A stretch of 64,000 nt of DNA from Myxococcota bacterium (lineage in GTDB: Bacteria; Myxococcota_A; UBA9042; PHBI01; JAWLBL01). Position numbers and translations under genes: made by a program. The notes below the pieces were generated by a model. The model did no database searches. It worked only from the letters and a program-made list of their open reading frames with translations, and was not told where the DNA came from. The stretch covers positions 70,325 to 134,324 of the forward strand of contig JAWLBL010000021.1 of NCBI GenBank assembly GCA_041687695.1, written 5' to 3'. Positions 6,307 through 54,149 of this stretch are shown here, piece after piece (positions within the stretch are counted from its first letter, which is position 1; every line of letters starts with the position of its first letter).

Positions 6307-6873
6307 ATGACAGACGGCCTCCGTTCGAGCTGGCTGCTGCTCGGCCTGGCGGTCGCCGGTCTGGCCGGCGGCGCGGCGCTGTGGCTCGCCGGCGCGCCCG
6401 GGGCGGCCGACGCGCTGTGGCTGGGCGCGACGGCGGTGGCGTTCGTGCCGCTGGTCGTGCGGGTCACGCGCAGCGTCCTGAGGGGCGAGGCGGGGGTCGA
6501 CCTCATCGCCGTGCTGGTCTGGCCGGCGCGATGCTGCTGGGCGAGTACCTGGCCGGCGCCGTCATCGGGCTGATGCTGGCCAGCGGCCGGCTGCTCGAGC
6601 GGCGCGCCAGCGCGCGGGCCACGCCTCGGGCGACCGGCTCGACAGCGGCACGGTCAACGTCGGCCGCGCGTTCCGGATGCGCGCGACGGCGTCGGCCGCC
6701 GAGAGCACCTACGCCGGCGTCGTCCGGCTGGTCGCGTCGGCCCAGCGCGACAAGGCGCCGGTCGCCCGGCTGGCCGACCGCTACGCTGCGCTGTTCATCC
6801 CGTTCACGCTGGCGGTCGCCGCGGCGGCCTGGGCGCTGTCGGGCGACCCGGTGCGCGCCCTCGCCGCGCTGCG
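6307..6873 (+). pseudogene. Decayed partial duplicate of the 5' region (promoter + N-terminal ~1/3) of the P-type ATPase gene at 12907
   Basis: Near-identical to 12873-13690, including the 35 bp upstream of the ATG (ctctagcgcgggcgcgttcaccaagttcaggcatg). It carries a 1-nt deletion (~6525) and a ~220-bp internal deletion (junction ~6625), so the frame is destroyed. Similarity ends ~6875. Confidence 0.85.
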
Positions 6874-7028
6874 AGCCCGTCCGGCCGAGGTGGTGCAACG
6901 AGTGAAGGTGCGCGCGCGCACCTCGGGACCGCGCGCGCGCAGCGGTGGCGGGTGCGGCGACCGCGCCGCGGCGCCCCGGCGCCCTGGCATGGAACTGGCT
7001 ACTCGACCCGGTCACCGAGGAGGGAGCC

Positions 7029-10000
7029 ATGCAGCGCCAGGAGCACCGAAGCAGTCCAGAGGGAGCGCGCAGCGCGGAGGAGAGGTCGCCGCAGCGCGAG
7101 GCCGGGGACGGCGTGCGGGGGCAGCTGCGGGAGCTGCCGTCCTACGCGGCGCAGCGGGCGGCGCTGGTCCCCGGCGGGCCCATCCACCTGTCGCGGCGCC
7201 CGGGCGGCGCGGACGGCGGGCGGTCGCCAGCGGAGGCCTTCGGCCAGGCGACCAGCGGGCCGGCGCGCGAGCTGCCGCACCGCGGGGCGATGGAGCAGGC
7301 CTTCGGGCGTGACCTCGGCGGAGTGCGGGCCTTCGTCGGCGACCCGCAGGCCAGGGCCGGGCTGTCGGCGCTGGGCGCGTCGGGGGCGGCGTCGGGCGGT
7401 GACGTCGCCTTCGCCGACCCCAGCCCGTCCAGGGAGCTGGTCGCCCACGAGGTGACGCACGTCCTGCAGGGCGGCGGCGGCGTGCAGGCGAAGTCCGAGG
7501 TGGCGCCCGCGGGCGACGCCGCCGAGGTCGAGGCCGACCAGGTCGCCGCGCGGGTGGCCGCGGGGCAGCCGGCGGGCCCCATCGGGGCCGCCGGCGGCGG
7601 GCTGCGGCTGAAGAGGGCCCACCGGACGACGCTGGACGGCGGGAAGGTGCGGGCCGACGACGAGGACAAGACGCCGCTGCAGGTGGGCGAGCGCGATCCG
7701 GCGGACCCGAACGTCAGCGTCTCGACGAACGACCTCGGCGACGGGCGGGTGGTGGTCGGGACCGAGAAGAAGAGCGACGCGACCTTCGGGACCGCCTCGA
7801 CCCGCAGCGTGACGACCGACGACAAGGTGGAGGACCCCGTCGCGACGGGGAAGGCCCTGCTGGCCGAGATGAGGTCGGCCACCAAGGACATCGACGAGCA
7901 CCGGCTGCCCGAGCTCGAGGCGCGGAGAGAGCGGCTCGAGGCGGCGAAGGCGACGCCTGAGGGCTCGGCCGAGGCCAACGGGCCGCGGTTCGACGTGGAC
8001 GCCGAGCTGGCGGCGGTCGAGGAGGAGCGAAAGCGCCTCGTGGCCAAGAAGGAGCGCCTGGCGGCGCGCACGGAGGAGCTCGGCGAGCGCCTCGGCGACG
8101 AGGCGGCGGCGAAGGGTCTCACCGTCGAGGAGCTGAAGGCGATCTCGGCCGAGGTCGGCGGGACGAGCGTCGAGGTGGCCTACCGCAGCGAGGGGTCGCA
8201 GACCTTCGAGGAGGGCAGCGGCTTCGCGGTCGAGCACGACGGCGTGCGCATCGAGGGCGGGTCGCTGGTCTCGAAGACCGACGCCGACGGCAACCAGTCG
8301 GGCGAGGGCAAGCGCTACTCGGGCAAGATCGGGGTCAAGGACGGCAGGGTCGGCGGCGAGCTCGAGCAGAAGGCGGCCGACGGCTCGTCGGTCAAGGGCT
8401 CGTTCCACGCCAACGAGGACGGGGCGGCCGCCGAGGGGACCTGGGCGAAGGCCGACGGCCGCTCGACGACCGTGGGTGCGACGGTGGACAAGGACGGCGG
8501 GTCGGCGAGCTACGCCTCCAAGGGCGCCGATGGGGTGAGCCACGAGCTGGGGGCGCACCACAAGAAGGGCAAGGACGGCGCCGAGGACGAGTGGGGCCTG
8601 ACGGCGGGCCTCGGCAAGGCCGACACCGACGCCGACAAGAAGGCCGCGAAGGACAAGGACAACGTCGACGGCAACCTCGAGGCGACGCTGTCGACGACGC
8701 GCGTCGGCGGCAAGGGCGACCTCACGCTGCCGCGGTGGGGCGACGACGCGCGCAGCTTCACGTTCAGCTGCGGCGGCAGCGTCTACATCGACTGCACGGT
8801 GACGGTCTCTGCCAAGGGACCGCCGCCGAAGTACACGCTGGTGGCCAGGGCGCACGGCAGCATCTCGCCGGGCGGCACGCTCAACGGCGAAGAGGGCGGC
8901 GCCGGGGCGAGCGCGACGGCCAAGGTGACGCTGGCGCTCGACAAGACCATCACGCGGGTCTACGACGGCCCGAAGCTCGAGGCGCAGCTCGCGTGCTACC
9001 GCGAGCTCGAGCTGGCGCCGCCGAGCACGCTCGAGAAGTGGCGGCGGGGGCTGGGGCTGCTGGCGGACGAGGGGGCGCTCACGGAGGTGGGCGACAAGGA
9101 CGAGTCGGGCTCGTCGGCGGGCGTCGAGCTGGGCGCCTCGGGCGACGCCAAGCTGGGCGGCGTCGGGGTCGGGGCCAAGGCGAGCTACGAGGGGCAGCGC
9201 AGCGTCCGGCTGACCGAGGAGAAGATCGGGGCCGACAAGAACCGGATCACGGCGCACATCGCGACGGCGCAGGAGGTCTCGGGCGGGGCCTCGGCGTCCG
9301 TGGTGACGGGCGGCGAGGTCACCTACGAGTACGAGTGGGATGAGGCCGAGACGGTCGAGTTCGAGCTGTCGACCAGGGACCCGAAGACCTACGGGGCGAC
9401 CCTGCAGCGCATCCGCGAGGCGACCACGCGCGAGGAGCTCGACGCGCTGGCGATGGCGCTGGGGAGCACGGGCTGGACCTCGGCCGAGGGGCACAGCGAG
9501 ACCGTCGGCGGCAAGGGCACGTTCGAGCAGGACCTCGGGGGCGGGCAGAAGGTCGGGCTCGACGTCGGTGGCAGCAGCACGGACGCGTTCAAGAGCGAGA
9601 TCAGCCTGAAGGACGGCAAGATCGGCGCGAAGGGGTCGGGCACGCAGACGGACGAGCTCGCCGTGTCGTCGGCCGCCGGGACCGAGATGCTGGGGGTCGA
9701 GAACGTCCACGGCGGCGCGGCGAGCAGCGACGGGAGCGAGGCCTCGCTGGAGCTGTCGAGCAAGACCACCGAGAAGACGCCGGGCCTGGGCAGCGGCAAG
9801 AGCCTGGTCGGCGAGGTGATGGCCAGGTCGTCGATCATCGAAGGCGTCCGGTCCTACCTGACCAAGGAGGAGACGACGCTCTCGGGCACCGGCTACAGGT
9901 CGGCGGATGTCTGGCGCCTCGTCGGCTACGCCAGCCAGAAGGGCGTCTGGAGCGGCGCGGTCGGCGTGGCGCTCCCCGGCCCGCCCGCGCAGAAGGCCTG

Positions 10001-11063
10001 GGAGCAGCTCGGTCGCACGCTGCGGAGCCCCGCCCGGAGCCCCGAGGCCGACCGCCTGCACGCCCGCATCGCGGCCGACCCGCAGCTCGACAACAAGACC
10101 AAGGAGCGCCTCGTCGAGGAGCTGGACCTCGCGTTGTCGATGCGCGCGCTGAACCTCTTCCTCAGCCAGGCCGGCAACGACGGCCAGAGCCTCATCCGCG
10201 CGGTCCTCGAGCGGGCCGGCCAGGGCACCCACCGCGGCGGCGTGAAGAAGGCCGCCGGCTCGAGCTGGTACTGGCCGCCCGAGCTGAAGGAGCTCCAGGG
10301 GCGCTGGACGAAGAGCCAGGCCGAGGTCGCCGGGCTCGAGGGCCAGGCGATGAAGCTGCTCGAGCAGGGCCTCGACGGGCGCGACGAGGGGCTGGCGCTC
10401 ATCACCGGCGCCACGAGCCGCCTCGACGGCGTCCTGCGCGACTTCGAGGCCGCGCGGGGCGAGCACTACGTCGACCACCCGCGCGAGTTCGTCGACATGA
10501 AGACGAAGATGGAGGCGAGCCAGCGGCAGGCGCGGAAGGTGCGCGCCGCCTTCGACCAGGCCGCGGTGGAGGTCGAGGACCGCTCGGTCGAGCCGGGCGA
10601 CGGCCCGCCTGCGGTCTGTGAGGCCACGGCGGAACCCGGGCCCGACTGCAGCGAGGAGCGCGCGGCCGCGCACGCAGAGGACCGCGAGCGCGTGGAGACG
10701 GCGCAGCGCCTCGAGCGGGCGCGCAAGATTCAGCAGATGAGCGCCTACTGCCGGGGCTTCAAGCTGCAGGAGACCAAGCTCCTCGGCGAAGCGCGCGACG
10801 CCTTCTTCCAAAGCGACGCGACGCGCATCCTGACGACCTCGCTCGCGCAGGGCTACGACGAATGGATCGGCCACCTGCTCGCTTATCGCGACGCCTACCG
10901 CGACGCCCAGTGGCCGGTCGAGACCTGGAAGATCAGCGCCGACGCCAAGAGCCGCCGCAACCTCTTCTACGAGCCCGACGTCGACGCCTTCGAGAAGGTC
11001 TGGCGCGACGCCCTCGGCAGCGAGCCGCCGTCGACCCTCGTCTGGCGCCTCCGGTCGTACTGA
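7029..11063 (+). CDS. Large (1344 aa) DUF4157-domain protein; Gly/Ser-rich and coiled-coil C-terminal regions, function unknown (putative effector/toxin)
   Basis: The N-terminus matches the DUF4157 signature (LPHRGAMEQAFGRDLGGVRAFVGD...GGDVAFADPSPSRELVAHEVTHVLQG). The ATG at 7029 is preceded by a GAGGAGGGAG Shine-Dalgarno. The ORF-track start at 6945 lies inside the upstream pseudogene and lacks an RBS. Confidence 0.7.
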   Translation: MQRQEHRSSPEGARSAEERSPQREAGDGVRGQLRELPSYAAQRAALVPGGPIHLSRRPGGADGGRSPAEAFGQATSGPARELPHRGAMEQAFGRDLGGVRAFVGDPQARAGLSALGASGAASGGDVAFADPSPSRELVAHEVTHVLQGGGGVQAKSEVAPAGDAAEVEADQVAARVAAGQPAGPIGAAGGGLRLKRAHRTTLDGGKVRADDEDKTPLQVGERDPADPNVSVSTNDLGDGRVVVGTEKKSDATFGTASTRSVTTDDKVEDPVATGKALLAEMRSATKDIDEHRLPELEARRERLEAAKATPEGSAEANGPRFDVDAELAAVEEERKRLVAKKERLAARTEELGERLGDEAAAKGLTVEELKAISAEVGGTSVEVAYRSEGSQTFEEGSGFAVEHDGVRIEGGSLVSKTDADGNQSGEGKRYSGKIGVKDGRVGGELEQKAADGSSVKGSFHANEDGAAAEGTWAKADGRSTTVGATVDKDGGSASYASKGADGVSHELGAHHKKGKDGAEDEWGLTAGLGKADTDADKKAAKDKDNVDGNLEATLSTTRVGGKGDLTLPRWGDDARSFTFSCGGSVYIDCTVTVSAKGPPPKYTLVARAHGSISPGGTLNGEEGGAGASATAKVTLALDKTITRVYDGPKLEAQLACYRELELAPPSTLEKWRRGLGLLADEGALTEVGDKDESGSSAGVELGASGDAKLGGVGVGAKASYEGQRSVRLTEEKIGADKNRITAHIATAQEVSGGASASVVTGGEVTYEYEWDEAETVEFELSTRDPKTYGATLQRIREATTREELDALAMALGSTGWTSAEGHSETVGGKGTFEQDLGGGQKVGLDVGGSSTDAFKSEISLKDGKIGAKGSGTQTDELAVSSAAGTEMLGVENVHGGAASSDGSEASLELSSKTTEKTPGLGSGKSLVGEVMARSSIIEGVRSYLTKEETTLSGTGYRSADVWRLVGYASQKGVWSGAVGVALPGPPAQKAWEQLGRTLRSPARSPEADRLHARIAADPQLDNKTKERLVEELDLALSMRALNLFLSQAGNDGQSLIRAVLERAGQGTHRGGVKKAAGSSWYWPPELKELQGRWTKSQAEVAGLEGQAMKLLEQGLDGRDEGLALITGATSRLDGVLRDFEAARGEHYVDHPREFVDMKTKMEASQRQARKVRAAFDQAAVEVEDRSVEPGDGPPAVCEATAEPGPDCSEERAAAHAEDRERVETAQRLERARKIQQMSAYCRGFKLQETKLLGEARDAFFQSDATRILTTSLAQGYDEWIGHLLAYRDAYRDAQWPVETWKISADAKSRRNLFYEPDVDAFEKVWRDALGSEPPSTLVWRLRSY

Positions 11064-12680: not shown

Positions 12681-12906
12681 CCCGGCGCAGGCGCTCCCAT
12701 GGCCAGGGTGCGCGCGCCCCCTGGCCAGAGGAGCCCTCGATGAAGCGCTGGGAGCTCGTGCTCGCCCTGACGCCGCGCGCGGCCTGCGCGCCGGGGAACC
12801 CCGACAAAGGCGATGTGGGGACGGCGTTGGAGGCCATGTTGGCCTTTCGCGAAGTGGAAGCGACTCGGCCCCTTCTCTAGCGCGGGCGCGTTCACCAAGT
12901 TCAGGC

Positions 12907-15282
12907 ATGACACACGGCCTCCGTTCGAGCTGGCTGCTGCTCGGCCTGGCGCTCGCCGGCCTCCTCGGCGGCGCGGCGCTGTGGCTCGCCGGCGCGCCCG
13001 GGGCGGCCGACGCGCTGTGGCTGGGCGCGACGGCCGTGGCGTTCGTGCCGCTGCTCGTGCGGGTCACGCGCGCCCTCCTCCGGCGCGAGGCGGGGGTCGA
13101 CCTCATCGCCGTGCTGGCCCTGGCCGGCGCGATGCTGCTGGGCGAGTACCTGGCCGGCGCCGTCATCGGGCTGATGCTGGCCAGCGGCCGGCTGCTCGAG
13201 CGGCGCGCCAGCGCGCGGGCCATGCGCGAGCTCACGGCGCTGCTGGCGCGGGCGCCGAGGGTCGCCCACCGCGTCGAGGGCGAGGCCGTGGTCACGGTCG
13301 ACGTGGACGCCGTCGGTCCGGGCGACCTGCTGCTGGTCAAGGAGGCCGACGTGCTCCCGGTCGACGGCCTGCTCGCCGACGAGCACGCGACCCTCGACGC
13401 GTCGGCGCTGACCGGCGAGGCGCGGCCGGTCGAGCGCGCCTCGGGCGACCGGCTCGACAGCGGCACGGTCAACGTCGGCCGCGCGTTCCGGATGCGCGCG
13501 ACGGCGTCGGCCGCCGAGAGCACCTACGCCGGCGTCGTCCGGCTGGTCGCGTCGGCCCAGCACGACAAGGCGCCGGTCGCCCGGCTGGCCGACCGCTACG
13601 CTGCGCTGTTCATCCCGTTCACGCTGGCGGTGGCCGCGGCGGCCTGGGCCCTGTCCGGCGACCCGGTGCGCGCCCTCGCCGTGCTGGTCGTGGCGACGCC
13701 CTGCCCGCTGCTGCTCGCCGTGCCCATCGCCATCGTCGCCGGGGTCTCCCGGGCCGCCCGCCGCGGCGTCATCGTCAAGGGCGGCGGGGCGCTGGAGCTG
13801 CTGGCGCGGGCCGACCGGGTGTTCCTGGACAAGACGGGGACGCTGACGTCGGGCGCGGCGAGCCTGTCGCGCGTCGCGACGACCGGCGGGTGGACCGACG
13901 AGGCGAGGCTGCTCGCGCTCGCCGGCTCGGTCGAGCAGGTCTCGTCCCACGTGCTCGCCGGGGCGATCGCGCGCGCCGCGCGAGCGCGGGGCCTGGCGCT
14001 GTCCTTCCCGGCCGAGGTGCGCGAGGAGCCGGGCGCGGGCGTCGAGGGGACGGTCGACGGCCGGCGCGTGCGGGTGGGCCGCTACGACTGGGTGACGCGG
14101 GACGCCGAGGCCGACGACGCCGAGGCGGGCTTTCGCCGTCGGGCCACGCGCACGCTGGGGTCGGCGGTGTTCGTGGCCGTCGACGGGGCGCTCGCCGGGG
14201 CGCTGCTCCTCGAGGACCCCATCCGGCTGGAGACGCCGCGCACCCTGCGCGCCCTGCGCCGCGCCGGGGTGCGGCAGATCGACGTGCTGACGGGGGACCA
14301 CCCCGCCGTCGCCGCCTCGGTGGGCGCCGCGCTGGGCCTCGACCGGGTCCACGCGCAGCTGTCGCCCGAGGAGAAGGTGCGGACGGTGGCCGAGGCGCGG
14401 TCGGCCGGGTCCAAGGTCATGGTCGGCGACGGCATCAACGACGCGCCGGCCCTGGCGGCGGCCGACGTGGGGGTCGCCATGGGGGCGCGCGGTGCGACCG
14501 CCTCGTCCGAGGCCGCGGACGTGGTGCTGACGACCGACCGCTTCGACCGGCTGGTCGACGCGATCCTGATGGCGCAGCGGTCGCGCAGCGTGGCCTTGCA
14601 GAGCGTGGCGCTCGGCATGGGGTTGTCGGTGGTCGCGATGGGCGCGGCGGCCTTCGGGCTGCTCGCGCCCGTGGTCGGGGCGTTCCTGCAGGAGGGCATC
14701 GATCTGCTGGCCATCGGCTGGGCGCTGCGGGCCCTGGGGCCGGGCGCGGCCGAGCGGGCGCGCGACCGCAAGCGCCGGGTCCTGAGCCCCGAGGCCGCCG
14801 CGCACCTGGCCGCCGACCACGAGCACCTGGTCCCGACGCTCGAGCGCTTCCGGAACCTGGCCGACCAGCTCGACGCGCTGCCGCGGCGGCAGGTCTGCGA
14901 GGAGCTGCGGTCGTTGAACCGCTTTCTGAAGACCGATCTCCTGGCCCACGAGCGGGCCGACGAGGCCGAGGTCTACCCGGCCCTCGCCGCGCGGCTCGAG
15001 GGCGACGATCCGCTGGGGACCATGAGCCGCACGCACCAGGAGATCTTCCACCTGGCGCGGCTGCTCGATCTGCTGCTCCACGAGCTGCCCGCCGAAGGCC
15101 CCGAGCCCGAGGACCTGCCCGACCTGCGGCGGCTGCTCTATGGCCTCCACGCGGTGCTGCGCCTGCACTTCGCGCAGGAAGAGGAGCTGTACCAGAGCGT
15201 GACCGACGACGGCGGCGGCCGGCGGCGCCCCCGACGCGCCCGCGGCCCGAGCCCCCTCGGCCCGCCCGTCACCAGCCGGTGA
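12907..15282 (+). CDS. P1B-5-type heavy-metal P-type ATPase with C-terminal hemerythrin-like domain
   Basis: DKTGTLT phosphorylation motif, TGEARP actuator motif and MVGDGINDAPALAAADVGVAMG hinge. TM motif TPCPLL (PCP rather than CPC). No N-terminal HMA domain. C-terminal H..HxxxE...H..HFAQEEE hemerythrin-like signature. Confidence 0.9.
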   Translation: MTHGLRSSWLLLGLALAGLLGGAALWLAGAPGAADALWLGATAVAFVPLLVRVTRALLRREAGVDLIAVLALAGAMLLGEYLAGAVIGLMLASGRLLERRASARAMRELTALLARAPRVAHRVEGEAVVTVDVDAVGPGDLLLVKEADVLPVDGLLADEHATLDASALTGEARPVERASGDRLDSGTVNVGRAFRMRATASAAESTYAGVVRLVASAQHDKAPVARLADRYAALFIPFTLAVAAAAWALSGDPVRALAVLVVATPCPLLLAVPIAIVAGVSRAARRGVIVKGGGALELLARADRVFLDKTGTLTSGAASLSRVATTGGWTDEARLLALAGSVEQVSSHVLAGAIARAARARGLALSFPAEVREEPGAGVEGTVDGRRVRVGRYDWVTRDAEADDAEAGFRRRATRTLGSAVFVAVDGALAGALLLEDPIRLETPRTLRALRRAGVRQIDVLTGDHPAVAASVGAALGLDRVHAQLSPEEKVRTVAEARSAGSKVMVGDGINDAPALAAADVGVAMGARGATASSEAADVVLTTDRFDRLVDAILMAQRSRSVALQSVALGMGLSVVAMGAAAFGLLAPVVGAFLQEGIDLLAIGWALRALGPGAAERARDRKRRVLSPEAAAHLAADHEHLVPTLERFRNLADQLDALPRRQVCEELRSLNRFLKTDLLAHERADEAEVYPALAARLEGDDPLGTMSRTHQEIFHLARLLDLLLHELPAEGPEPEDLPDLRRLLYGLHAVLRLHFAQEEELYQSVTDDGGGRRRPRRARGPSPLGPPVTSR

Positions 15283-16639: not shown

Positions 16640-17460
16640 ACCGGTTCGGCCACGCCCGGCTCCGCACCGCCACGACACCGCCGCCTCGCCCCCTGGGACC
16701 GCCGGTTTCCAGAGGGTGTCGCAGAAGCCCAACCGGAGTGCTCCACCTTGGTGGAGCCCCCATCCGGCGCAGCTTGCTGCGCCGGGGTTGGCGGCCAGAT
16801 CCCGGCGGCAAGCCGCCGGGGCCGGGGCTCCGGCAAGCCGGAGCACTCCAAGACCGCCTCCGCCGGCATCAACACGACACCCTCTTCCAGCCGGCCTCGC
16901 GCTCGCACCAGCACGACCTCCGACTCTCGGCCCCTGGGACCGCCGATTTCCAGGGGGTGTCGCAGAAGCCCAACCGGAGTGCTCCACCTTGGTGGAGCCC
17001 CCATCCGGCGCAGCTTGCTGCGCCGGGGTTGGCGGCCAGATCCCGGCGGCAAGCCGCCGGGGCCGGGGCTCCGGCAAGCCGGAGCACTCCAAGACCGCCT
17101 CCGCCGGCATCAACACGACACCCTCTTCCAGCCGGCCTCGCGCTCGCACCAGCACGACCTCCGACTCTCGGCCCCTGGGACCGCCGATTTCCAGAGGGTG
17201 TCGCAGAACCCCAACCGGAGTGCTCCACCTTGGTGGAGCCCCCATCCGGCGCAGCTTGCTGCGCCGTGGTTGGCGGCCAGATCCCGGCGGCAAGCCGCCG
17301 GGGCCGGGGCTCCGGCAAGCCGGAGCACTCCAAGGCCGCCTCCGCCGGCATCAGTACGACACCCTCTTCCAGCCGGCCTCACGCTCGCACCAGCACGACC
17401 TCCGACTCTCGGCCCCTGGGACCGCCGGCTTCCAGCCGGCCTCGCGCTCGCACCTGCACG
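16640..17460. repeat. Tandem array (~3.4 copies) of a 241-bp unit, each unit made of four GC-rich inverted repeats with CTTG/CAAG centres
   Basis: Unit starts at 16690, 16931, 17172 and 17413. Core: GGAGTGCTCCACCTTGGTGGAGC..CCGGCGCAGCTTGCTGCGCCGG..CCCGGCGGCAAGCCGCCGGG..GCTCCGGCAAGCCGGAGCACTCC. All ORFs across it are Pro/Arg/Ala-rich in every frame. Confidence 0.9.
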
Positions 17461-18935: not shown

Positions 18936-19414
18936 GCAGCACCTCCTACCCTATGTCGCAGTCAAGCCCCCCTCGCCGCGACCCGCTCGCCTCCCCGATC
19001 CACTCCCCTCGGCCCGCGCCGGCTCGATGGCCTCGCCGTTCACAAGCCCCCCACGCCCTTCCCGGCCGGCGTCCCTCCGTACCTGCCCTCCCGCACCGCC
19101 GGAATCCCAGCCCCGCCGCCCTCCGGCCGCGCCGGTGTCAACCTTCCGGCCGCGTACGCCTTGCACCCCTCGCCACGCCCGAATACAGTCGCCCCAACGC
19201 AGTACCGGAAGGCGGCCATGCTCACGCAAGAAGCCCAAGCACTCCGCTCGCCCGAGCCCCACGGCTCCCAGCGCACCGCGGCGCCCACCGTCTTCGCACG
19301 CGGTCCGGCCCTGCCCGGCCCCGCGCATCCCCCGCGCATCCAATAGCCAACGCACCACCTGGCCGAGGCCGCAGCCGCCAACCCGCACCCACCCCGACGA
19401 CCCAGCGAGCCATC

Positions 19415-20383
19415 ATGACCGCGCCGCAACCACCGACCGAACCGAGCCTGGGCGACTACGTCGTCCACCCGAAGTTCCCCGAGTGGGGCCCGGGCAAGGT
19501 CGCGCTCGTCGAGGGCGGCAACGTGTGGGTCTTCTTCAGGGACTACGCGGGCTCGACACCCGAGGACTCCCGGCGCGCCAAGCGCTTCAAGCTGGCCGAC
19601 CTCCCGCTCGAGCGCGCGGACCTCACGTCCGACGTGGTCCTCGACAACCTCCCGCCCTACGAGCGCAACGGCGGCGTCCTCATGCTGCCGCACCAGCGCC
19701 TGACCCTGGCCGACGCGAAGAAGGTCTTCCTCACCGAGTTCCCCCTCGGCTTCAAAGACGGGACCTACATCGGCGACCTCAGGATCGGCGAGCGCGCCTA
19801 CAAGCTCGCCGCCCACGAGCGCTTCACCGCCTTGCTCGGCGGCGGTCAGCTCGCGCAGCTCCTGGCCAGCGGGCAGGTCGCCGAGGCCGCCTCGCGCGCC
19901 CTGCAAGCGGTCACCAAGCAGCTCAACCTGCTGTCCCCCTACGAGGCCATGGCCTTCAAGGACGCCCTCGCCGACGAGCCCGCGGCCGCCCGCTACCTCC
20001 GCGGCCTCGACGCCCTCCTCCAGGCCCCGACCCTGACCGCCCCAACCTTCGAGGCCTACCTCGCCGGCTTCTTCGCCCTCCCCCAGGTCGGCAACTCACG
20101 CGTCCACTCCTGGCCCGTCTGCAGCGCCCTGCCCTTCATCGCCGCCCCCACCCGCTTCATGTTCCTCAAGCCCGGCGAGACCCAGACCGCCGTCAACCGC
20201 TTCGCCTGGGACATCAAGTACACCCCCCGCCCCAACTACGACACCTACAAGCGCCTCCACTCCTTCGCCGCCTGGCTCCAGACCGAGCTAGCCGACATGG
20301 GCTGCGCGGACTACATCGATGTGCAGTCGTTCATGTTCATCACCTGCGGCAGTAGCCACGAAGGCGCTGTGGCCGCATGTTGA
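19415..20383 (+). CDS. Hypothetical protein with DUF3553-like N-terminus (GDYVVHPKFPEWGPGKV)
   Basis: ATG at 19415 (ORF track 18953, in frame) begins the protein-like region; the N-terminal 154 aa of the longer ORF is Arg/Pro-rich. The overlapping 18934 ORF in another frame is low-complexity. Confidence 0.55.
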   Translation: MTAPQPPTEPSLGDYVVHPKFPEWGPGKVALVEGGNVWVFFRDYAGSTPEDSRRAKRFKLADLPLERADLTSDVVLDNLPPYERNGGVLMLPHQRLTLADAKKVFLTEFPLGFKDGTYIGDLRIGERAYKLAAHERFTALLGGGQLAQLLASGQVAEAASRALQAVTKQLNLLSPYEAMAFKDALADEPAAARYLRGLDALLQAPTLTAPTFEAYLAGFFALPQVGNSRVHSWPVCSALPFIAAPTRFMFLKPGETQTAVNRFAWDIKYTPRPNYDTYKRLHSFAAWLQTELADMGCADYIDVQSFMFITCGSSHEGAVAAC

Positions 20384-20434
20384 GAAACAGTTTATTGTCA
20401 GCGCGGCTGGGCCGGATATTCTGGACCGCCCTAG

Positions 20435-20463
20435 AAAGCGGGAAGTGGCGAGGCCTGACCCTA
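20435..20463 (+). repeat. Left direct repeat (att-like) of the lower-GC island
   Basis: GAAAGCGGGAAGTGGCGAGGCCTGACCCT matches 26394-26423 (GAAAGTGAGAAGTGGCTAGGCCTGACCCCT) in direct orientation. GC content drops immediately downstream. Confidence 0.5.
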
Positions 20464-20660
20464 AGCATACGGACTTCCAGCCGGAGGCGCGGGACGGTCG
20501 AGCGTCGTGTCACGACCCGCGTGGCACGTGCGCTAGCGCCGTTGTCAGTTCACTCCCCGTTGGGCTAGACTATCACCTGATATTAGGACGTCTCTCCTGA
20601 TGCCTCAGCAGCCCGAGGTGCGTGCGATGCCGAGTGACGCCGGCCCCCCCCCCGACATGG

Positions 20661-20849
20661 ATGACCCTCGATGAATTTACTGAGCATCTCAGAGTTAGCC
20701 GTTAGAAGCTCTACAACCTCGCGCAGGGCGGCGAGATCCCCTGCTTCAAGGTCGCCGGTCGAAGAGGTTTCTATCGCCCGAAGATCGACGAATGGATGCT
20801 GGCGCAGGGCCCTGGGTCGGCGACCCCGAAGGGGGAACATCGTGAGTAG
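20661..20849 (+). pseudogene. Excisionase/HTH_17-like DNA-binding ORF interrupted by an in-frame TAG
   Basis: Reads MTLDEFTEHLRVSR*KLYNLAQGGEIPCFKVAGRRGFYRPKIDEWMLAQGP. This is the classic Xis/AlpA-type helix-turn-helix pattern, with an amber codon at 20703-20705 in the recognition-helix region. Confidence 0.6.
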
Positions 20850-20867
20850 ATCGCGCGGGGTAGCAGC

Positions 20868-23800
20868 ATGAGCGTCACAGAACACCTTGAAGGCCTTGCC
20901 GCCGCGATCAACGATGGTCGCCCCCTCGTCGTGCTCATGGGCCAGGATGCGTGGCGGGTCGGCACTCGGCCGGATCCTGCGGTACTCGCAGCGCTCAAGC
21001 GTGCCGAGAGATTGGAAGTGGACTCCGATCCGAGAGGGCTCGTTTCTCTGCTCTCCGTTGAGCCCCTGCCCGAAGACTTCTTTCAATGGCTCGCTGACCA
21101 GTACCTTCGGCAGGTCGAACCTGAGTGGTTTGAGCCCATCGCACGCCTCCCATTAAACGCATTCTTCACGACTAGCGTGGACCCTACACTTTCGAGGGCG
21201 CTTCGCGTTGGGGGCCGTGATGTTGAGGCAGTTCTGAGCAAGTCGGACACCCCCGCGGCGCCGCGCCACCGACGCAATCTCCACTTGAGCTACCTTTTCG
21301 GTCGCGCCGGTGAAATGAACCTCAGTGAGGCGCCGCCGAAGTCGACTCAGGAGTTGCGACGACGAACTGCATTGCACGCGAATGCCCTCCTCGCCCGACT
21401 CGTCGAAACCACCACGTCGCTCGGGGTGCTCGCTATTGACGGGTTGACCTGTGGTAGCGACTGGCTGTCGGCCGAATCGCTGTATGGCGTGCTGTCCGCG
21501 TTCAAGCCCGGCCAAGTCTTCTGGTTCGGGTGGGACTCTTCGCTGAGCACAGGCGACGCGGCCCTGATGGAGGAACTGGCGGCGCCCAATGGCCCCATCA
21601 CTTTCGTGCCCGAGAGGCTCTCTAGCTCTCTCCGCGCGCTCACACTGGCGGGCAGAATTGAGCCGCTTCGCGCGGCGTCCTTGGCGGCGACGAACGCCGT
21701 GACTATCGGCGAATCGCTCCTCGAGATTGAGCCCTCGACGCGACTCAAGACCTCGACGGCCGCTAGTATCGTCGACGACACGTGGCTCGCGCCACTTCCC
21801 GTGCTCGGTGAGGATGAGTTCTTCGAGGAGTTCCGACGATTCCACGGTCAGGTGGAGGAAGCGCGCCGGCTCGTCGAGGGGGTGAGGCGGGGGTTCGCCA
21901 TAGAGCGGGCCTTTGAGAATCGGCTTCGCGATCGAGTCCAGAACGCACTCAAGGACGCACCGCGGCTCAAGGAACCGATTCTGCTTCATGGTCAGTCCGG
22001 AACAGGCAAGAGCATCGCACTCGCGCGCCTCGCGCTCTCCGTTCGGAAGGATCGCCGATATCCGGTGCTAGTTGCCAGCCGCGCATCACGGTTGCCCGCG
22101 GTAGACGAGCTTGACGAGTTCTGTATGCGCGCCGAGGAGGCCGGCGCCGAAGCAACCCTTCTTATCTGTGATGCGAATGCGCAGGCGGCTCGGTATCGGG
22201 ACCTTCTGCGGGGCTTTCGAAGTCGAGGAAGACGAGTCGTTGTGGTCGGTAGCGCGTATCGCCTCATTGACCAGAAGCAGGCTGCGGGAGAAGGAAGGCA
22301 TCTCATCGAGGCGCCCTCGACGCTGGACGACGAAGAAGCTGCGAATCTCACCGCGGTTCTCCGGGAGCACGCCAGCCTCAAGTACACGTCCTCAACATCT
22401 CAATTTCTGCTGCCGGCCGTCTACCGCATTCTGCCGGAGGTGCGCCCTCGATTGGCCGCCGGTCTGGCTCACGAAGCGCGGGTCGCGGAGGATGATCTCA
22501 GGTCACGCGGGACAACCATTCGGCAGGGCAAGCCCCAGCCCGCCGGTGCGCTTGGACAGGCGCTCATAGATGCGGGCTTGATTGAACCGAAAGAACTTCT
22601 CGATCTGCGACTTCAGGAGTTCATGGGAGCCCTGAGCGACGCGGCATCGAAGGCGATCGACTACGTAATGGTGCCAGGGAAGCTGGACTGCCCTGTTCCC
22701 ATCAACCTGCTGATGCGGGCGGTAGGTGGGAGCGAGAGCCTGGTTGATATCGCATCCCTGTTCTCTGGAATCGACCTGTTTCGATGGAGCACAAACGACG
22801 AGGACGATATCTTCATTCACCCTCGCCTTCGAGTCGAAGCAGAGTTGGTCACAGCTCGACGGCTCGGAACGTCGACTGCTGAGGCACAGATAGCGGTTGA
22901 TCTCCTGAAAGCAGCGAACCCCACTACACATGGAAGCTGCGAGCGACGGTTCGTCCTGGACCTTGTTCATCGTCTGGGTCCCGACGGCCCCTACGGACCG
23001 TGCTACGCCGACCACTATCTGGACGTCGCACGCGCGCTTACGGAAATGCGCGAGCGGCGCGGGCTCAGCGACCCGAGCCTCATGCTCCAGGAAGCTCGTC
23101 TCAGACGACGGGTTTTTCGAGATGCCCGGCCGAACGAACGGCACAACCCTGCGACTATCCTGGACGAGGCACGGCAGATCGTCGATCTCGCCCTCGACGA
23201 GTTCGGCGCGGCCCGCTCGCCTGGGTTGCGCCGCGTTTGCTCAATGCTTCGGGTGGAGCGCGCCGCCATCTACGGCTTTCGCGCTGTGCAACAGCTACAG
23301 TCTGGTGCATCCCAAGATGAGACTTGGCAGTACTACGAGGCAGCACGAGACGCTGCTCGCAGTGCCTTGTTCTCTGCGGACGCGTACCACGCGATCGACG
23401 TGAGCCTTTGGATACCGCGCCGACTGCTCGAGGATGGGAACTGGGATTCCGTCCGGAAGGCGGAACTGACCGCCGACATATGGGATGGTCTCGAGCGCGT
23501 CGACGCTGACGATTTGGACGCAGACCAACGTGGCGTCTTCGAGGAGCAACGCTTCAAGGTCTCGAAAGCACTTGGGAGCGACGAGCTTGAATTGGCGGCT
23601 CTCCAGGCACTCGAGTCGATGGGGTCATCCGCGGGGCTGTTCCTGCAAGCGCGAGCGATCGGCGGCGATCTGCGGGGCCGCGGGATGGCGGACGATGGTG
23701 AACGGGAGCGAGCACGACGTGTAGTCGGGTTCCTAACTGAGAAGGGACCGCGGATCCGGGAGGACGCACGATGTCTTCGGTATCTCCTGCGCGCGACCTG

Positions 23801-24299
23801 GATCAGCGCGGCAGGTAGCTACTTGTTCGGAGGGGAACGACTTCCTCTGCCGGGTTCCGAGTCGGACCTCAGAGAGCTTCTGGACATCGTCGACACCCTC
23901 GCCAACATCGAAGGCTCGTTGGGAGACCCGCGAACCGAGTACCTGCGAGCCGTGTTGATGTGGCGGTTGCAGCGGGAGAACGCTGCGCGCGAGGTTTGGC
24001 GCGCCTTGAGCCAAGACACGGCATTCAACGACCCCCGACGCATCGTTCGACACCATGTATGGAGTGAGAGCGAAGGGAAACCGCGAGTCTTCTATGGCCG
24101 AGTCGTGCGCGATGACCTGGAGCGTGGGCGAGCCAAAGTTCAGGTGGACGACATCCGGCAGGAGATAGAGATCCTACAGCGCGACTTCCCTGACCTGGAG
24201 CTGCGGCGGGGCGCCTCGATTCGCGGCGGGTTCTACATCGCCTTCAACTTCATCGGGCCGATTGCGGAGCCACTTATCAGAAGAGGGGGTGGCCGATGA
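20868..24299 (+). CDS. SIR2-like + STAND P-loop NTPase (Avs5-like antiphage defence protein), 1143 aa
   Basis: N-terminus resembles SIR2_2 (GRPLVVLMGQDAW ~ GxLVLFvGAGvS; FFTTSVDPTLSRAL ~ iTTNYDxLLE; NLHLSYLFG ~ KLHGS). Walker A is LLHGQSGTGKSIALARLA and Walker B is ATLLICDANAQ. Long C-terminal helical region. Lower GC than the genome. Confidence 0.6.
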   Translation: MSVTEHLEGLAAAINDGRPLVVLMGQDAWRVGTRPDPAVLAALKRAERLEVDSDPRGLVSLLSVEPLPEDFFQWLADQYLRQVEPEWFEPIARLPLNAFFTTSVDPTLSRALRVGGRDVEAVLSKSDTPAAPRHRRNLHLSYLFGRAGEMNLSEAPPKSTQELRRRTALHANALLARLVETTTSLGVLAIDGLTCGSDWLSAESLYGVLSAFKPGQVFWFGWDSSLSTGDAALMEELAAPNGPITFVPERLSSSLRALTLAGRIEPLRAASLAATNAVTIGESLLEIEPSTRLKTSTAASIVDDTWLAPLPVLGEDEFFEEFRRFHGQVEEARRLVEGVRRGFAIERAFENRLRDRVQNALKDAPRLKEPILLHGQSGTGKSIALARLALSVRKDRRYPVLVASRASRLPAVDELDEFCMRAEEAGAEATLLICDANAQAARYRDLLRGFRSRGRRVVVVGSAYRLIDQKQAAGEGRHLIEAPSTLDDEEAANLTAVLREHASLKYTSSTSQFLLPAVYRILPEVRPRLAAGLAHEARVAEDDLRSRGTTIRQGKPQPAGALGQALIDAGLIEPKELLDLRLQEFMGALSDAASKAIDYVMVPGKLDCPVPINLLMRAVGGSESLVDIASLFSGIDLFRWSTNDEDDIFIHPRLRVEAELVTARRLGTSTAEAQIAVDLLKAANPTTHGSCERRFVLDLVHRLGPDGPYGPCYADHYLDVARALTEMRERRGLSDPSLMLQEARLRRRVFRDARPNERHNPATILDEARQIVDLALDEFGAARSPGLRRVCSMLRVERAAIYGFRAVQQLQSGASQDETWQYYEAARDAARSALFSADAYHAIDVSLWIPRRLLEDGNWDSVRKAELTADIWDGLERVDADDLDADQRGVFEEQRFKVSKALGSDELELAALQALESMGSSAGLFLQARAIGGDLRGRGMADDGERERARRVVGFLTEKGPRIREDARCLRYLLRATWISAAGSYLFGGERLPLPGSESDLRELLDIVDTLANIEGSLGDPRTEYLRAVLMWRLQRENAAREVWRALSQDTAFNDPRRIVRHHVWSESEGKPRVFYGRVVRDDLERGRAKVQVDDIRQEIEILQRDFPDLELRRGASIRGGFYIAFNFIGPIAEPLIRRGGGR

Positions 24300-25513
24300 G
24301 CTTCGAGAGCATTCTACGCTGTCACCAGCGGATCAACGGACTGTCCAGAAGCCTCCTCGGGCGTCCCGCGTTCGACGAGCTTCACGTCGCGCTCCCTGAC
24401 CCAGCGAGTCCCGAACCTGGCTTTATCCGGGCGACCTCGTGGCTTTACTGCCTTTACTTCGAAGCGGGGCGAGTCAGCATAACGTTCTTGCGCCGTCTCG
24501 GAGAGGCCTACTCGTTGATCGACCGCGCTGAGATCGACGAGCACGTTGAGGTCGTGCGGTGCCTTCGAACAGAACTCCACCACAACCTCGGGTTCGTGGA
24601 TTCAGATCAGGCTGCGCGGGCGTCCGCAGAGGGATGGCGTCGGAGGGTCTGCGGCACTGCGATTCCTCGAGACGACGCGCAGTGGAGCAAGTGCTATGTC
24701 GGCTTGATCGAGAAGGCCAACCACTTCCTGAGCGCCATCGATGAGGTCGTTCGACGTATTGAGGCCGACGGCGACAAGGCCGGACAGCACCTTGAAGAGT
24801 GGCTTCGACGTCTCGACCGTAGTTGGCCAGCGGCAGCCTTCGACCCTGTGGTCGATGAGGCGAAATACCACCTTGGCCGCCAGGGCCTCAACACCGTTGA
24901 GTTCAGGCAGCGCCATGTCGACCGGTGGCGCGCCCAACTCGAGCTCATGGAGGATGGGTTCGACTTTGCCGAAGAGGCTACTCGACTTGTCGAGAAGTCG
25001 CTGCTGGACGAAGACAGTTTCGTTCTTCCGATAACGGGCCGCGACATTGTGAACGCTCTGCAGATTGCATCTGGGCCGCGAATTGGGACGCTTCTCGAAC
25101 AGGCGCAACGGAGGTTTGCGGCTCAGCCCTGCACCAGGGAAGAGTTGCTCGCTCACCTGGAACGCAGCCGCCCAGATTCGGATTTCGACAGCCTTGTGGA
25201 CGCGGCGAAGGTACGCTTTGGACGAGACGATCTTAATACAGTCAGGTTTCGGCAGTGTCATGTGGACCACTGGCGCGAGCAGCTCGACCTCATGGAAGAC
25301 GACGTGGACTTCGATGACCAGGCGACGCGCCTAATCGAGAAGACGTTGACAGACGAGGTGCTTCTGCCGATCACGAGTCAGGATGTTTTGGACGAACTGC
25401 GGATCAAGCCTGGCCGCCGGGTAGGAGCACTCCTCGTGGCGGCTCGCAAGCGATTCGAGTCTGCGCCGTGCACCAAGGAGGTGCTGCTGGAGTATCTCGC
25501 TGCGGTCCCCTGA
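24296..25513 (+). CDS. Partner protein co-transcribed with the SIR2-STAND gene; contains an internal tandem duplication of a ~110-aa module
   Basis: Start overlaps the upstream stop (ATGA). Two repeats (...LNTVEFRQRHVDRWRAQLELMEDGFDF...LPITGRDIVNALQIASGPRIGTLLEQAQRRF...REELLAHLE and ...LNTVRFRQCHVDHWREQLDLMEDDVDF...LPITSQDVLDELRIKPGRRVGALLVAARKRF...KEVLLEYL). Confidence 0.6.
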   Translation: MSFESILRCHQRINGLSRSLLGRPAFDELHVALPDPASPEPGFIRATSWLYCLYFEAGRVSITFLRRLGEAYSLIDRAEIDEHVEVVRCLRTELHHNLGFVDSDQAARASAEGWRRRVCGTAIPRDDAQWSKCYVGLIEKANHFLSAIDEVVRRIEADGDKAGQHLEEWLRRLDRSWPAAAFDPVVDEAKYHLGRQGLNTVEFRQRHVDRWRAQLELMEDGFDFAEEATRLVEKSLLDEDSFVLPITGRDIVNALQIASGPRIGTLLEQAQRRFAAQPCTREELLAHLERSRPDSDFDSLVDAAKVRFGRDDLNTVRFRQCHVDHWREQLDLMEDDVDFDDQATRLIEKTLTDEVLLPITSQDVLDELRIKPGRRVGALLVAARKRFESAPCTKEVLLEYLAAVP

Positions 25514-25856
25514 ACCCCAGGGGCCACGTCCGTAAGTATCAGAGGTGTCAGGGTTCCCCATTTCCCACCCGTCGCCACAGACAGGGACCTCGGCGGCCTG
25601 CGGCTTCATAGGTGCGTCGGTGCGTGACGGCGATTGGGCGGGCCCCAGGGGCCACGTCCGTAGAAGTTAAGTTGCTCGCGGATGGGCGACCGAGGCTGCA
25701 GGCGGCGTGTCCCAGGGGTCAAGTCCCAACTTACAAACAACTCGAGTGCAGACGGCTGGTTACGGGTGGCCCATGGTGAAGGAGTATGCAAGTCGCGACT
25801 TGCCCCCTCGCCCCTCTGACCCCTCGCCCCTCAGTTGCGACCATCCGGAGGAAGTG

Positions 25857-26183
25857 ATGCCCTCGCTCAGTGAATATGTAAACGTCTACAACACAGCCCT
25901 TGAGGTGCTTCGTGTCAAGGGATATCGCGTCTGGTTCGACAAGGAGGCCGATATGTACTGTGCTGAGAAGGACGGATGGGATTTCATGGCCGATGGCCCG
26001 ATTTCGCTGCTCGGCCTCGTAGCAATCTATGAACATCAAAACCCTTCAACATACAGAGACTACTGGTGGCGGCAAGAAGGGCCGCTTGAGTTCAACAAAC
26101 TCCCCAGCGAGGCTCCAGATTGCATACCTCTTGGGGTGAAGAGTTCCGAGGGCGGGGCGGGGGCAAAGGGGTCAGACACCTAA
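25857..26183 (+). CDS. Small hypothetical protein (108 aa)
   Basis: GGAGG RBS then ATG at 25857. AT-richer codon usage (island-like). No recognisable domain. Confidence 0.4.
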   Translation: MPSLSEYVNVYNTALEVLRVKGYRVWFDKEADMYCAEKDGWDFMADGPISLLGLVAIYEHQNPSTYRDYWWRQEGPLEFNKLPSEAPDCIPLGVKSSEGGAGAKGSDT

Positions 26184-26355
26184 TTGTACGCTCCTGTTGG
26201 ACAAGGAAGTGGAGGCCGCTTTGCTCCTCGCCCCGATTGGGGTGGGACTCCTCTTCGTCGCCAATGGGGGGTTCGACGACATCGCGCGATGTGCACGGCT
26301 AAAGGACGCCGTTCTGTGGCGTTCGATGTCGCCGCCGGAACGGTAGGCCCAAAGG

Positions 26356-26424
26356 CAGGGGTCAGGCCTAGCCACTTTCCATATCGGTGCTCGGAAAGTG
26401 AGAAGTGGCTAGGCCTGACCCCTG
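26356..26424. repeat. Perfect 22-bp inverted repeat (long hairpin); its right arm is also the island's right direct repeat
   Basis: CAGGGGTCAGGCCTAGCCACTT ... AAGTGGCTAGGCCTGACCCCTG with a ~25-nt loop. Confidence 0.8.
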
Positions 26425-26584
26425 GGGCCTGGTTCAGACAGGGCCTCCGCTGGTACGAGCTCCTGCCAAACATGCCCGAGGATCGTCTGAAGAAACGCAT
26501 GAACGAGTTCGTTGCGGTCATGCGAGAGCACGAGGTATGCAGCGCCGTTCTGGGGGTGCTGTAGGAATGGGGGGATGCCTCAAG

Positions 26585-26990
26585 GCCCAGGGGCCACGTC
26601 CGTAAAAGTTAAGTTGCTCGCGTGACCTCAGGGTCAAGTCCCAACTTGCAAACAACTCGAGTACGGACGGTTGGTTACGGGTGGCCCATGACGAAGAAGA
26701 GATCAGCCAGCTCCCCGTATTGGGCTCTAACAGTGAACCTCCGAAGGGCATGCGCCTCGGGGATCGGGTGAAGTGAACTCCGACGAGGCCCAGGGGCCAC
26801 GTCCGTAAAAGTTAAATTGCTCGCGTGACCTCAGGGTCAAGTCCCAACTTGCAAACAACTCGAGTACGGACGGTTGGTTACGGGTGGCCCATGACGAAGA
26901 AGAGATCAGCCAGCTCCCCGTATTGGGCTCTAACAGTGAACCTCAGAAGGGCATGCACCTCGGGGATCGGGTGAAGTGAACTCCGACGAG
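26585..26990. repeat. 203-bp tandem duplication (x2) containing MITE-like hairpin elements with CAGGGGCCACGTCCGTA termini
   Basis: Unit starts at 26585 and 26788, >95% identical. Related copies at 25515-25560 and 25643-25790, and a complete TIR-bounded copy at 63046-63260. Confidence 0.8.
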
Positions 26991-27108
26991 ATGATTCGAG
27001 GCGGCACGACCGCCGACAACGCATCGCATCGGCCTCGTCGTTCGGCTGTGTTGCTCAACATCTCTCCATTTCCTGGAGCGACGAGAAAGTGACATGTGAT
27101 GAACCGGC

Positions 27109-28921: not shown

Positions 28922-29782
28922 ATGCTTCGCCAACACGTCGTCGTCGCCGTTCTCGCCCTGCTCCTGCTCACGCTCGCCTCGCCGGCGGCCGCCGAGATTC
29001 CGGTCCCGGATGCCGCGACGCGTCAGGTCCTGAGGGCCGCCGTGCTGGAGGTCGAGCGGGACCACCCGCGCTACCACGTCGACCTCACGGCCGGGTGGTT
29101 CGTCGTGGCGACGGACGGCTCGCGCGCGGCCCACCAAAAGGCGCGCGGTGTCGTCACCCAGGCCGTGCGCTCGCTGTACCTCGAGTACTTCGAGGCGTCT
29201 CCCACCGCGCCGCTGCCGACGTTCGTCCTGCCCAACGCCGCCGCCTACCGCCGCTTCGTCGTCAGCGTCTACGGCGACGAGGGCCCGGCCCTGGGCAACC
29301 TGGGGTTCTTCGACCCTGGCCGCCGGCTGCTCATCCTGAACCACGGCCCCGGCCCCGGCACGCTCGCCCACGAGCTGGTCCACCCGCTGCTGCGCCACGA
29401 CTTCCCCCAGGCGCCCGCCTGGCTCGACGAGGGCTTCGCCGCCCTGTACGAGCACAAGACCTACCAGGACGGCCGCATGAAGCCCTTCGTCAACTGGCGC
29501 ATGCGGCACCTCCGCGCCCGCGCCCGCGACCTGTCGCTGCACGAGCTCATGACCTCGAGCACGGGCGACGTCTACGGACGCGACAGCGGGCTGTACTACG
29601 CCATGGGCCGCCACTTCCTGATGCACCTGCACCGCCAGGGCCACCTGGCCGCCTTCTACCGCGCCTACCGCGACGACTTCGCCGCGGACCCCACCGGCAT
29701 CACCCAGCTCGAGCGCGTCGTCGGCCAGCCCCTCGCCACCATCGAGGCCGCCTTCTGGACCTGGGTCGAACGCCACCGCTGA
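28922..29782 (+). CDS. Secreted HExxH protein (DUF1570/peptidase-MA-like), putative metallopeptidase
   Basis: Signal peptide MLRQHVVVAVLALLLLTLASPAAA from the ATG at 28922. AHELVHPLL zinc-binding-like motif. Confidence 0.55.
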   Translation: MLRQHVVVAVLALLLLTLASPAAAEIPVPDAATRQVLRAAVLEVERDHPRYHVDLTAGWFVVATDGSRAAHQKARGVVTQAVRSLYLEYFEASPTAPLPTFVLPNAAAYRRFVVSVYGDEGPALGNLGFFDPGRRLLILNHGPGPGTLAHELVHPLLRHDFPQAPAWLDEGFAALYEHKTYQDGRMKPFVNWRMRHLRARARDLSLHELMTSSTGDVYGRDSGLYYAMGRHFLMHLHRQGHLAAFYRAYRDDFAADPTGITQLERVVGQPLATIEAAFWTWVERHR

Positions 29783-54146: not shown

Positions 54147-54149
54147 AGG

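Follow-up and report, generated by a model that had tools for sequence, protein, structure and literature searches.

A short repeat family with MITE-like features at a low-GC island in an uncultured Myxococcota lineage

The island and its repeat copies

The window analysed here is a 64,000-nt stretch of one contig of a Myxococcota bacterium (GenBank assembly GCA_041687695.1, contig JAWLBL010000021.1, positions 70,325 to 134,324), and all coordinates without a locus name refer to it. Its GC content is 70-80%, and it holds an island of 58-67% GC at about 20-29 kb. The island contains an excisionase-type pseudogene, an NTPase gene with a partner gene, a small gene and four copies (A to D) of a short repeat; a further copy (E) forms a second locus 36 kb away, and the same two loci carry copies in a close relative. 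The repeats are built from an end module of about 38 nt, called L, and a module of 63 nt, called R, and they are accompanied by two types of palindrome, called H and G. The features are as follows.

20661-20849: excisionase-type HTH_17 pseudogene with an in-frame stop
20868-24299: nSTAND5 NTPase gene, with a partner gene of 405 aa (24296-25513), the gene upstream of copy A
25515-25647, plus strand: copy A, in which only the L terminus CCCCAGGGGCCACGTCCGTAAG is present (25515-25536, 22 nt of L), followed at 25542 by an arm of the other, G-type palindrome (GAGGTGTCAGGGTTC) and, abutting copy B, by a weak inverted terminus (GGGCGGGCCCC)
25643-25775, plus strand: copy B, with an L module (25643-25681), a 31-nt spacer and an R module (25710-25775) CCCAGGGGTCAAGTCCCAACTTACAAACAACTCGAGTGCAGACGGCTGGTTACGGGTGGCCC
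25856-26183: gene of 108 aa, between copies B and C
26356-26424: H palindrome, with perfect 22-nt arms CAGGGGTCAGGCCTAGCCACTT and a 25-nt loop; it has the CAGGGGYCA start found in L and R
26583-26988, plus strand: tandem duplication of two 203-bp units, each an L+R element with 97 bp of flank
26585-26690, plus strand: copy C, a compact L+R of 106 bp with imperfect end pairing GGGGCCAC...GTGGCCC
26788-26893, plus strand: copy D, L+R inside the second unit of the tandem duplication
54155-54234: G-type palindrome, TAGGTGTCCGGGTTCATCACTTTTC...GAAAAGTGATGAACCCTGAC, 8 nt past a stop codon
57027-57092: further G-type copy
57580-57666: terminus CCAGGGGTCAGGCC and G-type palindrome CAGGTGTCAGAGTTC..., starting 4 nt past a stop codon; the G part is 57608-57666
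63045-63261: copy E, a symmetric element of 217 bp in which a 133-nt core separates two L modules in inverted orientation

A repeat family marked by the 17-mer CAGGGGCCACGTCCGTA had been proposed from the letters of the window, and its existence was borne out. The 17-mer occurs exactly five times on the plus strand (starts at 25518, 25646, 26588, 26791 and 63049), far above chance, and once on the minus strand with one mismatch (63241-63257). When up to three mismatches were allowed, seven matches were counted in the window against 0.43 expected, and none of 100 shuffled sequences got to seven; likewise, CCAGGGGYCA occurs seven times against 0.42 expected. The four island positions named in the same sequence-only reading (25515, 25643, 26585 and 26788) all carry the motif, although copy A shares only the terminal 22 nt. 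Copy A had also been said to begin exactly at the stop codon of the partner gene; it starts 1-2 nt past this TGA (25511-25513). The proposed 203-bp tandem duplicate was confirmed, with 3 of 203 positions different between 26583-26785 and 26786-26988, and the junction shows a microhomology of 2 nt (AG) only.

All copies (A to E) are intergenic; around copy E, a different repeat family takes up the rest of the intergenic region. The elements measure 106-217 bp and have no coding capacity: the concatenated six-frame translations of E, B and C gave no match at an E-value <= 10 among 5.8 billion proteins, and the fully open 81-aa frame of copy E gave none among 1.84 billion representative proteins.

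The 108-aa protein has 96 homologues at an E-value <= 0.01, from myxobacteria, Enterobacterales and other bacteria. In the genomic contexts fetched, the neighbours of these homologues are Rhs/YD toxins and an Imm32 gene, or else the homologues form part of small-ORF arrays. Based on the Rhs and Imm32 neighbours the gene is read as immunity-type and the setting as a toxin-immunity and defence hotspot. Short repeats tend to accumulate in such hotspots (reviews PMC3184786, PMC2229807). The large window ORFs scanned with Pfam showed no transposase or integrase domain.

Modules, ends and folding

Alignment of the copies gives L as CCYCAGGGGCCACGTCCGYA followed by RRAGTKAARTTGCTC. Over its first 19 nt, 17-19 of 19 positions match between copies, in register, and over the next 19 nt 13-19 of 19 do so. 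A terminus that is near-invariant while the interior drifts is the pattern expected for a terminus recognised by a protein. In the R module, CCCAGGGGTCAAGTCCCAACTTRCAAACAACTCGAGTRCRGACGGYTGGTTACGGGTGGCCC, the head CCCAGGGGTCAAGTCC resembles L, and the tail reads as a degenerate L in inverted orientation with gaps (TACGGACGG..TACGGGTGGCCC). An L is joined to an R in each of copies B, C and D, with the spacer as an extra in B, and the island copies are mosaics of these two modules.

No other short-range inverted repeat of the window is as strong as copy E. It had been described as an element at 63046-63260 with terminal inverted repeats (TIRs) of 22 bp, which are real (21 of the first 22 nt match) but belong to longer arms: 63045-63086 and 63220-63261, 42 nt each and 86% complementary, so that the element spans 63045-63261. 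Under the MITE definition that we used (PMC11602168), inverted repeats measure at least 10-15 bp, duplications of the target 2-10 bp and the whole element 50-800 bp. The arms of E are well above the first of these lengths, the end complementarity of A-D is weak, being short and gapped, and the 106-217 bp of the non-coding elements lie inside the size range of about 50-800 bp.

Target-site duplication was searched for as exact direct repeats at boundary shifts of -8 to +8. None flanks E, A-D, H or G, where only 2-nt GG matches were seen. The sequence-only reading had itself named this feature as one on which its proposal could fail, and it is absent at every tested boundary. In copy E, the bases outside CAGGGG (ACCT and AGGT) are complementary in inverted orientation, and are therefore part of the inverted repeat and not a direct duplication. 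By the known end rules of insertion sequences (IS), Tn3-type ends carry GGGG with a 5-bp duplication, ISAs1-type ends carry CAGGG with an 8-10-bp duplication, and IS1380-type ends carry CCC/CCT. Assignment of E to any of these three types was ruled out, because the bases that flank it are inverted complements, not direct duplications.

A hairpin of ~100 nt had been proposed for each copy. This applies strongly to E, whose single strand folds at -135.5 kcal/mol (z = -7.2), and weakly to C and D, which fold barely better than shuffles and in a strand-dependent manner (z = -1.5 to -2.8), but not to A and B, which on the plus strand fold like shuffled sequence (z about +0.3). A search of the whole window against Rfam at gathering thresholds returned no matches, and at permissive thresholds only far sub-threshold matches to generic hairpins (miRNA precursors) were returned, on the H palindrome. 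No tRNA or tmRNA gene was found near the elements, and a scan for promoters and terminators came back without any site resembling either. The suggestion that the copies might be structured sRNA genes thus found no support, Rfam being empty and the fold energies of A and B unremarkable.

The locus in a close relative and searches beyond it

The relative is assembly GCA_041690335.1, from an uncultured Myxococcota bacterium. It was reached through the backbone protein encoded at 28925-29782, which is matched at 100% identity in the protein collection and has one cluster mate at at least 90%. When this route was repeated with other window proteins, four loci of the relative were obtained, which correspond to 7.6-64 kb of the window and extend 3.7 kb beyond it:

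L033: 98.7% identity to the window
L029: 96-97% identity to the window
L034: 99.8% identity to the window
L030: 99.7% identity to the window

The relative has copy E at the corresponding site (L030 4427-4643), with identity at 217 of 217 positions. As it is fixed in both genomes there is no empty site to compare, and no clean presence/absence polymorphism was seen between the window and the relative. The borders of the island are also the same, the left one in the 3'-terminal part of the upstream gene, at window position 20358, and the right one at 26785, within 3 nt of an L head. The cargo upstream of the modules is the nSTAND5 NTPase with the 405-aa gene in the window versus DUF4297-HerA in the relative, this pair being assigned by PADLOC with E-values of 1.7e-157 and 1.2e-281. 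Past the cargo, L029 holds co-oriented small ORFs of 114, 107, 155, 150 and 102 aa, between which lie imperfect palindromes of 60-130 bp.

Next to this swapped cargo the modules are rearranged. In the relative L and R stand apart and in another order, downstream of the cargo and between small immunity-like genes. In L029, R stands without L at 3246, 4382 and 4473, and a solitary L with one mismatch, at 3477, is followed by a G-type element. L+R is found once, at 6709-6814, where the window has the duplicated pair, and is identical to copy C at 106 of 106 positions. The R half of copy B together with the small gene downstream matches L029 4471-4923 at 453 of 453 positions; we rejected recent transfer of this segment, as 0 differences in 453 bp is unremarkable given the 99.7% identity elsewhere in the two genomes. 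The homology blocks, whether between copies or between the window and L029, each start within 1-3 nt of CCCAGGGG. Between H and L, L029 also contains a stray piece of the 114-aa gene, 88 nt long (3389-3470 versus 3711-3800), which looks like the product of untidy recombination and not of precise cassette exchange. The relative has only one 203-bp unit, which differs from the two units of the window at 1 and 2 positions; being single and intermediate, it indicates that the tandem duplication arose in the lineage of the window. The island copies therefore differ between the genomes in number and order, through rearrangement rather than clean insertion.

In the other 27 kb of the relative (L033 and L034) no further copy of L or R and no insertion polymorphism were found. 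No transposase was found among the genes called or Pfam-scanned in ~60 kb of the relative, and no integrase or recombinase was found in the window or in the loci of the relative. The modules probably account for the fact that the assemblies of the relative break at the island locus.

The palindromes link the family to further repeats. The terminus CCAGGGGYCA is common to L, R and the H hairpin, which is also present in the relative (L029 3311-3380) in another context. The G hairpins are more abundant and have the variant start CAGGTGTCAGGG; the start of the type is CAGGTGTCAGGGTTCATCACTTTC, its inverted partner lies at a distance of 10-40 nt, and some copies begin GTAGGTGTC, which contains GTAG. 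G-type copies lie just past stop codons, most starting within ~10 nt of one, and are found in the window at the three positions listed above and inside copy A, and in L029 at 3540-3600, 4946-5017, 5511-5577 and 6116-6170. L, R, H and the G type share their head, and CCAGGGGYCA is in excess; the family therefore belongs, as one branch, to a larger and more varied group of extragenic palindromic repeats that this lineage carries.

Beyond the two genomes, no copies were detected in 185,579 species-representative genomes, 241 million metagenome records, IMG/VR, plasmids or phages. A pattern scan with the 19-mer CYCAGGGGCCACGTCCGYA gave 12 single matches in species-representative genomes and 16 in metagenome contigs. 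These come from unrelated taxa or from a single conserved locus that is likewise unrelated, and since none extends past the pattern they are taken as chance. Scans of IMG/VR for the cores of L and G likewise gave chance matches only, and BLAST found no match for copy E in plasmids and none for the 1.5-kb region in plasmids or phages. As had been anticipated, the family is not in Rfam and was not found in any collection searched, and a literature search on myxobacterial MITE or REP families found nothing relevant. The copy number looks low in the ~125 kb examined, and because no copy was detected elsewhere the family may be very small. As far as is visible, it appears to be restricted to one uncultured lineage.

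Interpretation and comparison with known systems

The MITE reading, with which the analysis began, stands in part. The elements are short and non-coding with sharp ends, E has long terminal inverted repeats and copies are present at two loci, but target-site duplication is absent at the tested boundaries, no transposase was found in the window or in ~60 kb of the relative, E is fixed in both genomes, and B, C and D are composites. On balance we favour, with a probability of roughly 0.55, a lineage-specific, non-autonomous family bounded by inverted repeats, in which E has remained intact and the copies in the island have become mosaics or have decayed, and which provides portable homology in a defence and immunity hotspot. 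The functional end would be the almost invariant L terminus of ~19 nt, and B, C and D would represent an L end joined to an R. The elements would have been spread in the past by a transposase encoded elsewhere in the genome, and most island copies would probably no longer be mobile. Together with the H and G palindromes they would act as dispersed patches of homology in the low-GC island, at which illegitimate and homologous recombination may shuffle, duplicate and swap segments. The repeats with their sharp ends and inverted repeats, the tandem duplication specific to the window, and the changed module order and cargo in the relative are direct observations; both the past transposition with its enzyme and the causal part of the modules in the rearrangements are what we infer from the anatomy of the copies and from the comparison of the two genomes.

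Three other explanations draw on the same observations. L, H and G could be extragenic repeats that a REP-associated tyrosine (HUH) transposase moves in the form of single-stranded hairpins, copy E then being a REPIN-like doublet and the single L modules decayed singlets; we consider this unlikely, though the lack of target duplications keeps it alive, as the HUH mechanism leaves none. By the published features and definitions of REPINs and their transposases (PMC3116915, PMC3337134), it would agree with the strictly extragenic location, with the start of copy A and of several H-like and G-type copies ~1-10 nt from a stop codon, with the two inverted units of E in one long hairpin, with related sub-families that share a 5' end in one genome, and with the GTAG, typical of REPs, in the start of some G copies. 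Against it, L has no internal stem and is not itself palindromic as REP units are; L begins CCYCAGGGG, and L, R and H start CCAG or CCCAG and not GTAG, only some G-type copies starting GTAGG; the 133-nt spacer and 42-nt arms of E are large for a REPIN; and no Y1 transposase (RAYT) gene was found in the available sequence of the window and the relative. The hairpins might also have been kept for a function in cis and not for mobility, as stabilisers of 3' ends, terminators, processing sites or small RNA genes. Their position directly past stop codons in the co-oriented small-gene array of L029 and the perfect conservation of E between the two genomes point in this direction, but the identity of E is unremarkable in a region that is 99.7% identical, and L and R occur as isolated halves that are unable to form a hairpin. 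With A and B folding no better than shuffles, no Rfam family beyond the sub-threshold generic hairpins on H, no promoter-like or terminator-like sites, and distinct copies too few for covariation, we regard a role in cis as distinctly improbable.

The relative's island, with its co-oriented small ORFs between imperfect palindromes of 60-130 bp, also recalls a cassette array, and in two near-identical genomes the order of modules and the cargo differ, with breakpoints at module ends and an excisionase-type pseudogene at 20661-20849. The CCCAGGGG modules would then be sites of a site-specific recombinase that exchanges small immunity and defence cassettes, analogous to the attC sites of integrons. 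We scanned for attC cores with a regular expression on both strands of window positions 25400-27100 and L029 3200-6900; the core pair RYYYAAC...GTTRRRY is present at no module, and the sole pair detected is a chance match inside a gene. No integrase domain, and so no IntI tyrosine recombinase, was found in the scanned ORFs or called genes, G-type palindromes also follow ordinary backbone genes, and the gene fragments between modules (L029 3389-3470, part of the 114-aa gene) look like untidy recombination. A recombinase-driven cassette system is accordingly very improbable in our view. More improbable still would be that the CCCAGGGG-headed L, R, H and G are recognition sites of an undescribed, integrase-independent cassette exchange that shuffles immunity and defence genes at a fixed hotspot; if true, this would be a functional analogue of attC sites without their core motifs.

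The non-autonomous, inverted-repeat-bounded family that we favour adds one lineage-specific set of short repeats, from a poorly sampled uncultured Myxococcota lineage, to a well-known class. The more interesting biology is that of the hotspot which hosts the repeats. Here the modules serve as a marker that delimits a hypervariable locus, with different anti-phage systems and immunity-like gene sets in two near-identical genomes. They would gain greater importance only if shown to be active sites of recombination or transposition that drive the exchange of defence cargo.

Compared with known systems, integron attC sites, including the homogeneous arrays of chromosomal integrons (for example, the repeats of Vibrio cholerae) and CALINs, attC clusters that lack an integrase, are similar in that imperfect palindromes of ~60-130 bp separate small co-oriented genes of unknown function and that array content differs between close strains; they are unlike the repeats described here, which lack the R''/R' core sites and an integrase and whose palindromes also occur outside the array. 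The REP/REPIN and BIME mosaics of Enterobacteria and Pseudomonas share more features: they are extragenic, are located just past stop codons, leave no target duplication, form long hairpins as inverted doublets (as E does, z = -7.2), comprise sub-families in mosaic clusters, and are vertically inherited and lineage-specific. L differs from REPIN units in having neither an internal palindrome nor a GTAG head, E has much longer arms and a much longer spacer, and no RAYT was found. From bacterial MITEs such as Correia/NEMIS of Neisseria, Nezha of cyanobacteria and MITEAba12, the family differs in that no target-site duplication, matching autonomous insertion sequence or insertion polymorphism was found, and in that most of its copies are two-module mosaics and not uniform units. 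It resembles these MITEs in its length of 100-220 bp, in being non-coding and TIR-bounded, in its intergenic location, often by gene ends, in having several copies per genome, and in the terminus being the most conserved part. The family is an ordinary member of the known MITE/REP-like class of short repeats and not a new system.

Defence hotspot and its cargo

A defence hotspot occupies 20358-26785 (203-6705 in locus L029 of the close relative GCA_041690335.1). The genes on either side are shared, and the cargo between them differs: an nSTAND5 NTPase with a 405-aa partner in the window, against DUF4297-HerA in a relative that is 96-99.7% identical to it. At the left, the junction falls within the final codons of the preceding gene (18953-20383). 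PADLOC returned no match for either the nSTAND5 NTPase or its 405-aa partner.

Genes in the hotspot (window coordinates)
20661-20849, excisionase-type HTH_17 gene (Pfam E = 8.7e-8)
20868-24299, nSTAND5 NTPase, hotspot cargo

Codon 15 of the HTH_17 gene is an in-frame TAG. The gene immediately precedes the STAND NTPase and hints that the hotspot cargo arrived on an integrative element.

Second variable island and indel

A second variable island (window 51749-56033, L034 1-2567) is occupied in the relative by ~2.5 kb of unrelated sequence, at which the contig of the relative ends.

54802-55911, AAA_21/HEC-01A-like ATPase gene (window)

Upstream of this gene is a G-type palindrome (54155-54234), one of the short repeats that mostly start near stop codons; another, at 57027-57092, is located outside the variable segment. 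At window 28571/28572 the relative carries 1156 bp (L029 8494-9649) that are absent from the window and make up the greater part of an extra minus-strand ORF (347 aa as called, 8340-9383, with the frame open to 9635). The junction of this indel has CG microhomology only, and no repeat modules were found there.

Other repeat families

A repeat family of about 55-120 bp has ACGTTACCGCGGTAACGT, a perfect palindrome, as its core, with GGCAGGCCGGCGGGTCG after it. Six copies occur in the window, two of them directly adjoining element E, the 217-bp element with inverted modules at 63045-63261.

Locations of the ACGTTACCGCGGTAACGT palindrome family
Window: 56162-56310, 61007-61293, 63279-63459
Relative, L030: 4310-4381, 11430-11500

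A 241-bp unit, containing inverted repeats of its own (GGAGTGCTCCACCTTGGTGGAGCCCC), is tandemly repeated three times at 92-96% identity (window 16663-17444), with further copies at 84-92% identity 32 kb away (49377-49599) and just past the window end (L030, about 3159-3344). Repeats of 250 nt with 94-98% identity connect window 6264-6871 and 12864-13686.

Putative immunity genes and eCIS_core proteins

Between the short repeat copies B and C of the low-GC island is a 108-aa ORF from a family of about 96-aa proteins that is widespread, occurring in myxobacteria, Serratia, Xenorhabdus and others; its members sit next to Rhs/YD toxins and Imm32, or within small-ORF arrays. Five such small ORFs are arrayed in the relative. 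The family probably represents immunity proteins without a Pfam model.

Loci of the 108-aa ORF family
Window 25856-26183; L029 3618-6558; L031; L032

Two very large proteins carry an N-terminal eCIS_core domain.

eCIS_core proteins (window)
6945-11063, 1372 aa
33490-38157, 1555 aa

This is compatible with their being toxin cargo for a contractile injection system, a reading that fits the immunity-gene context.
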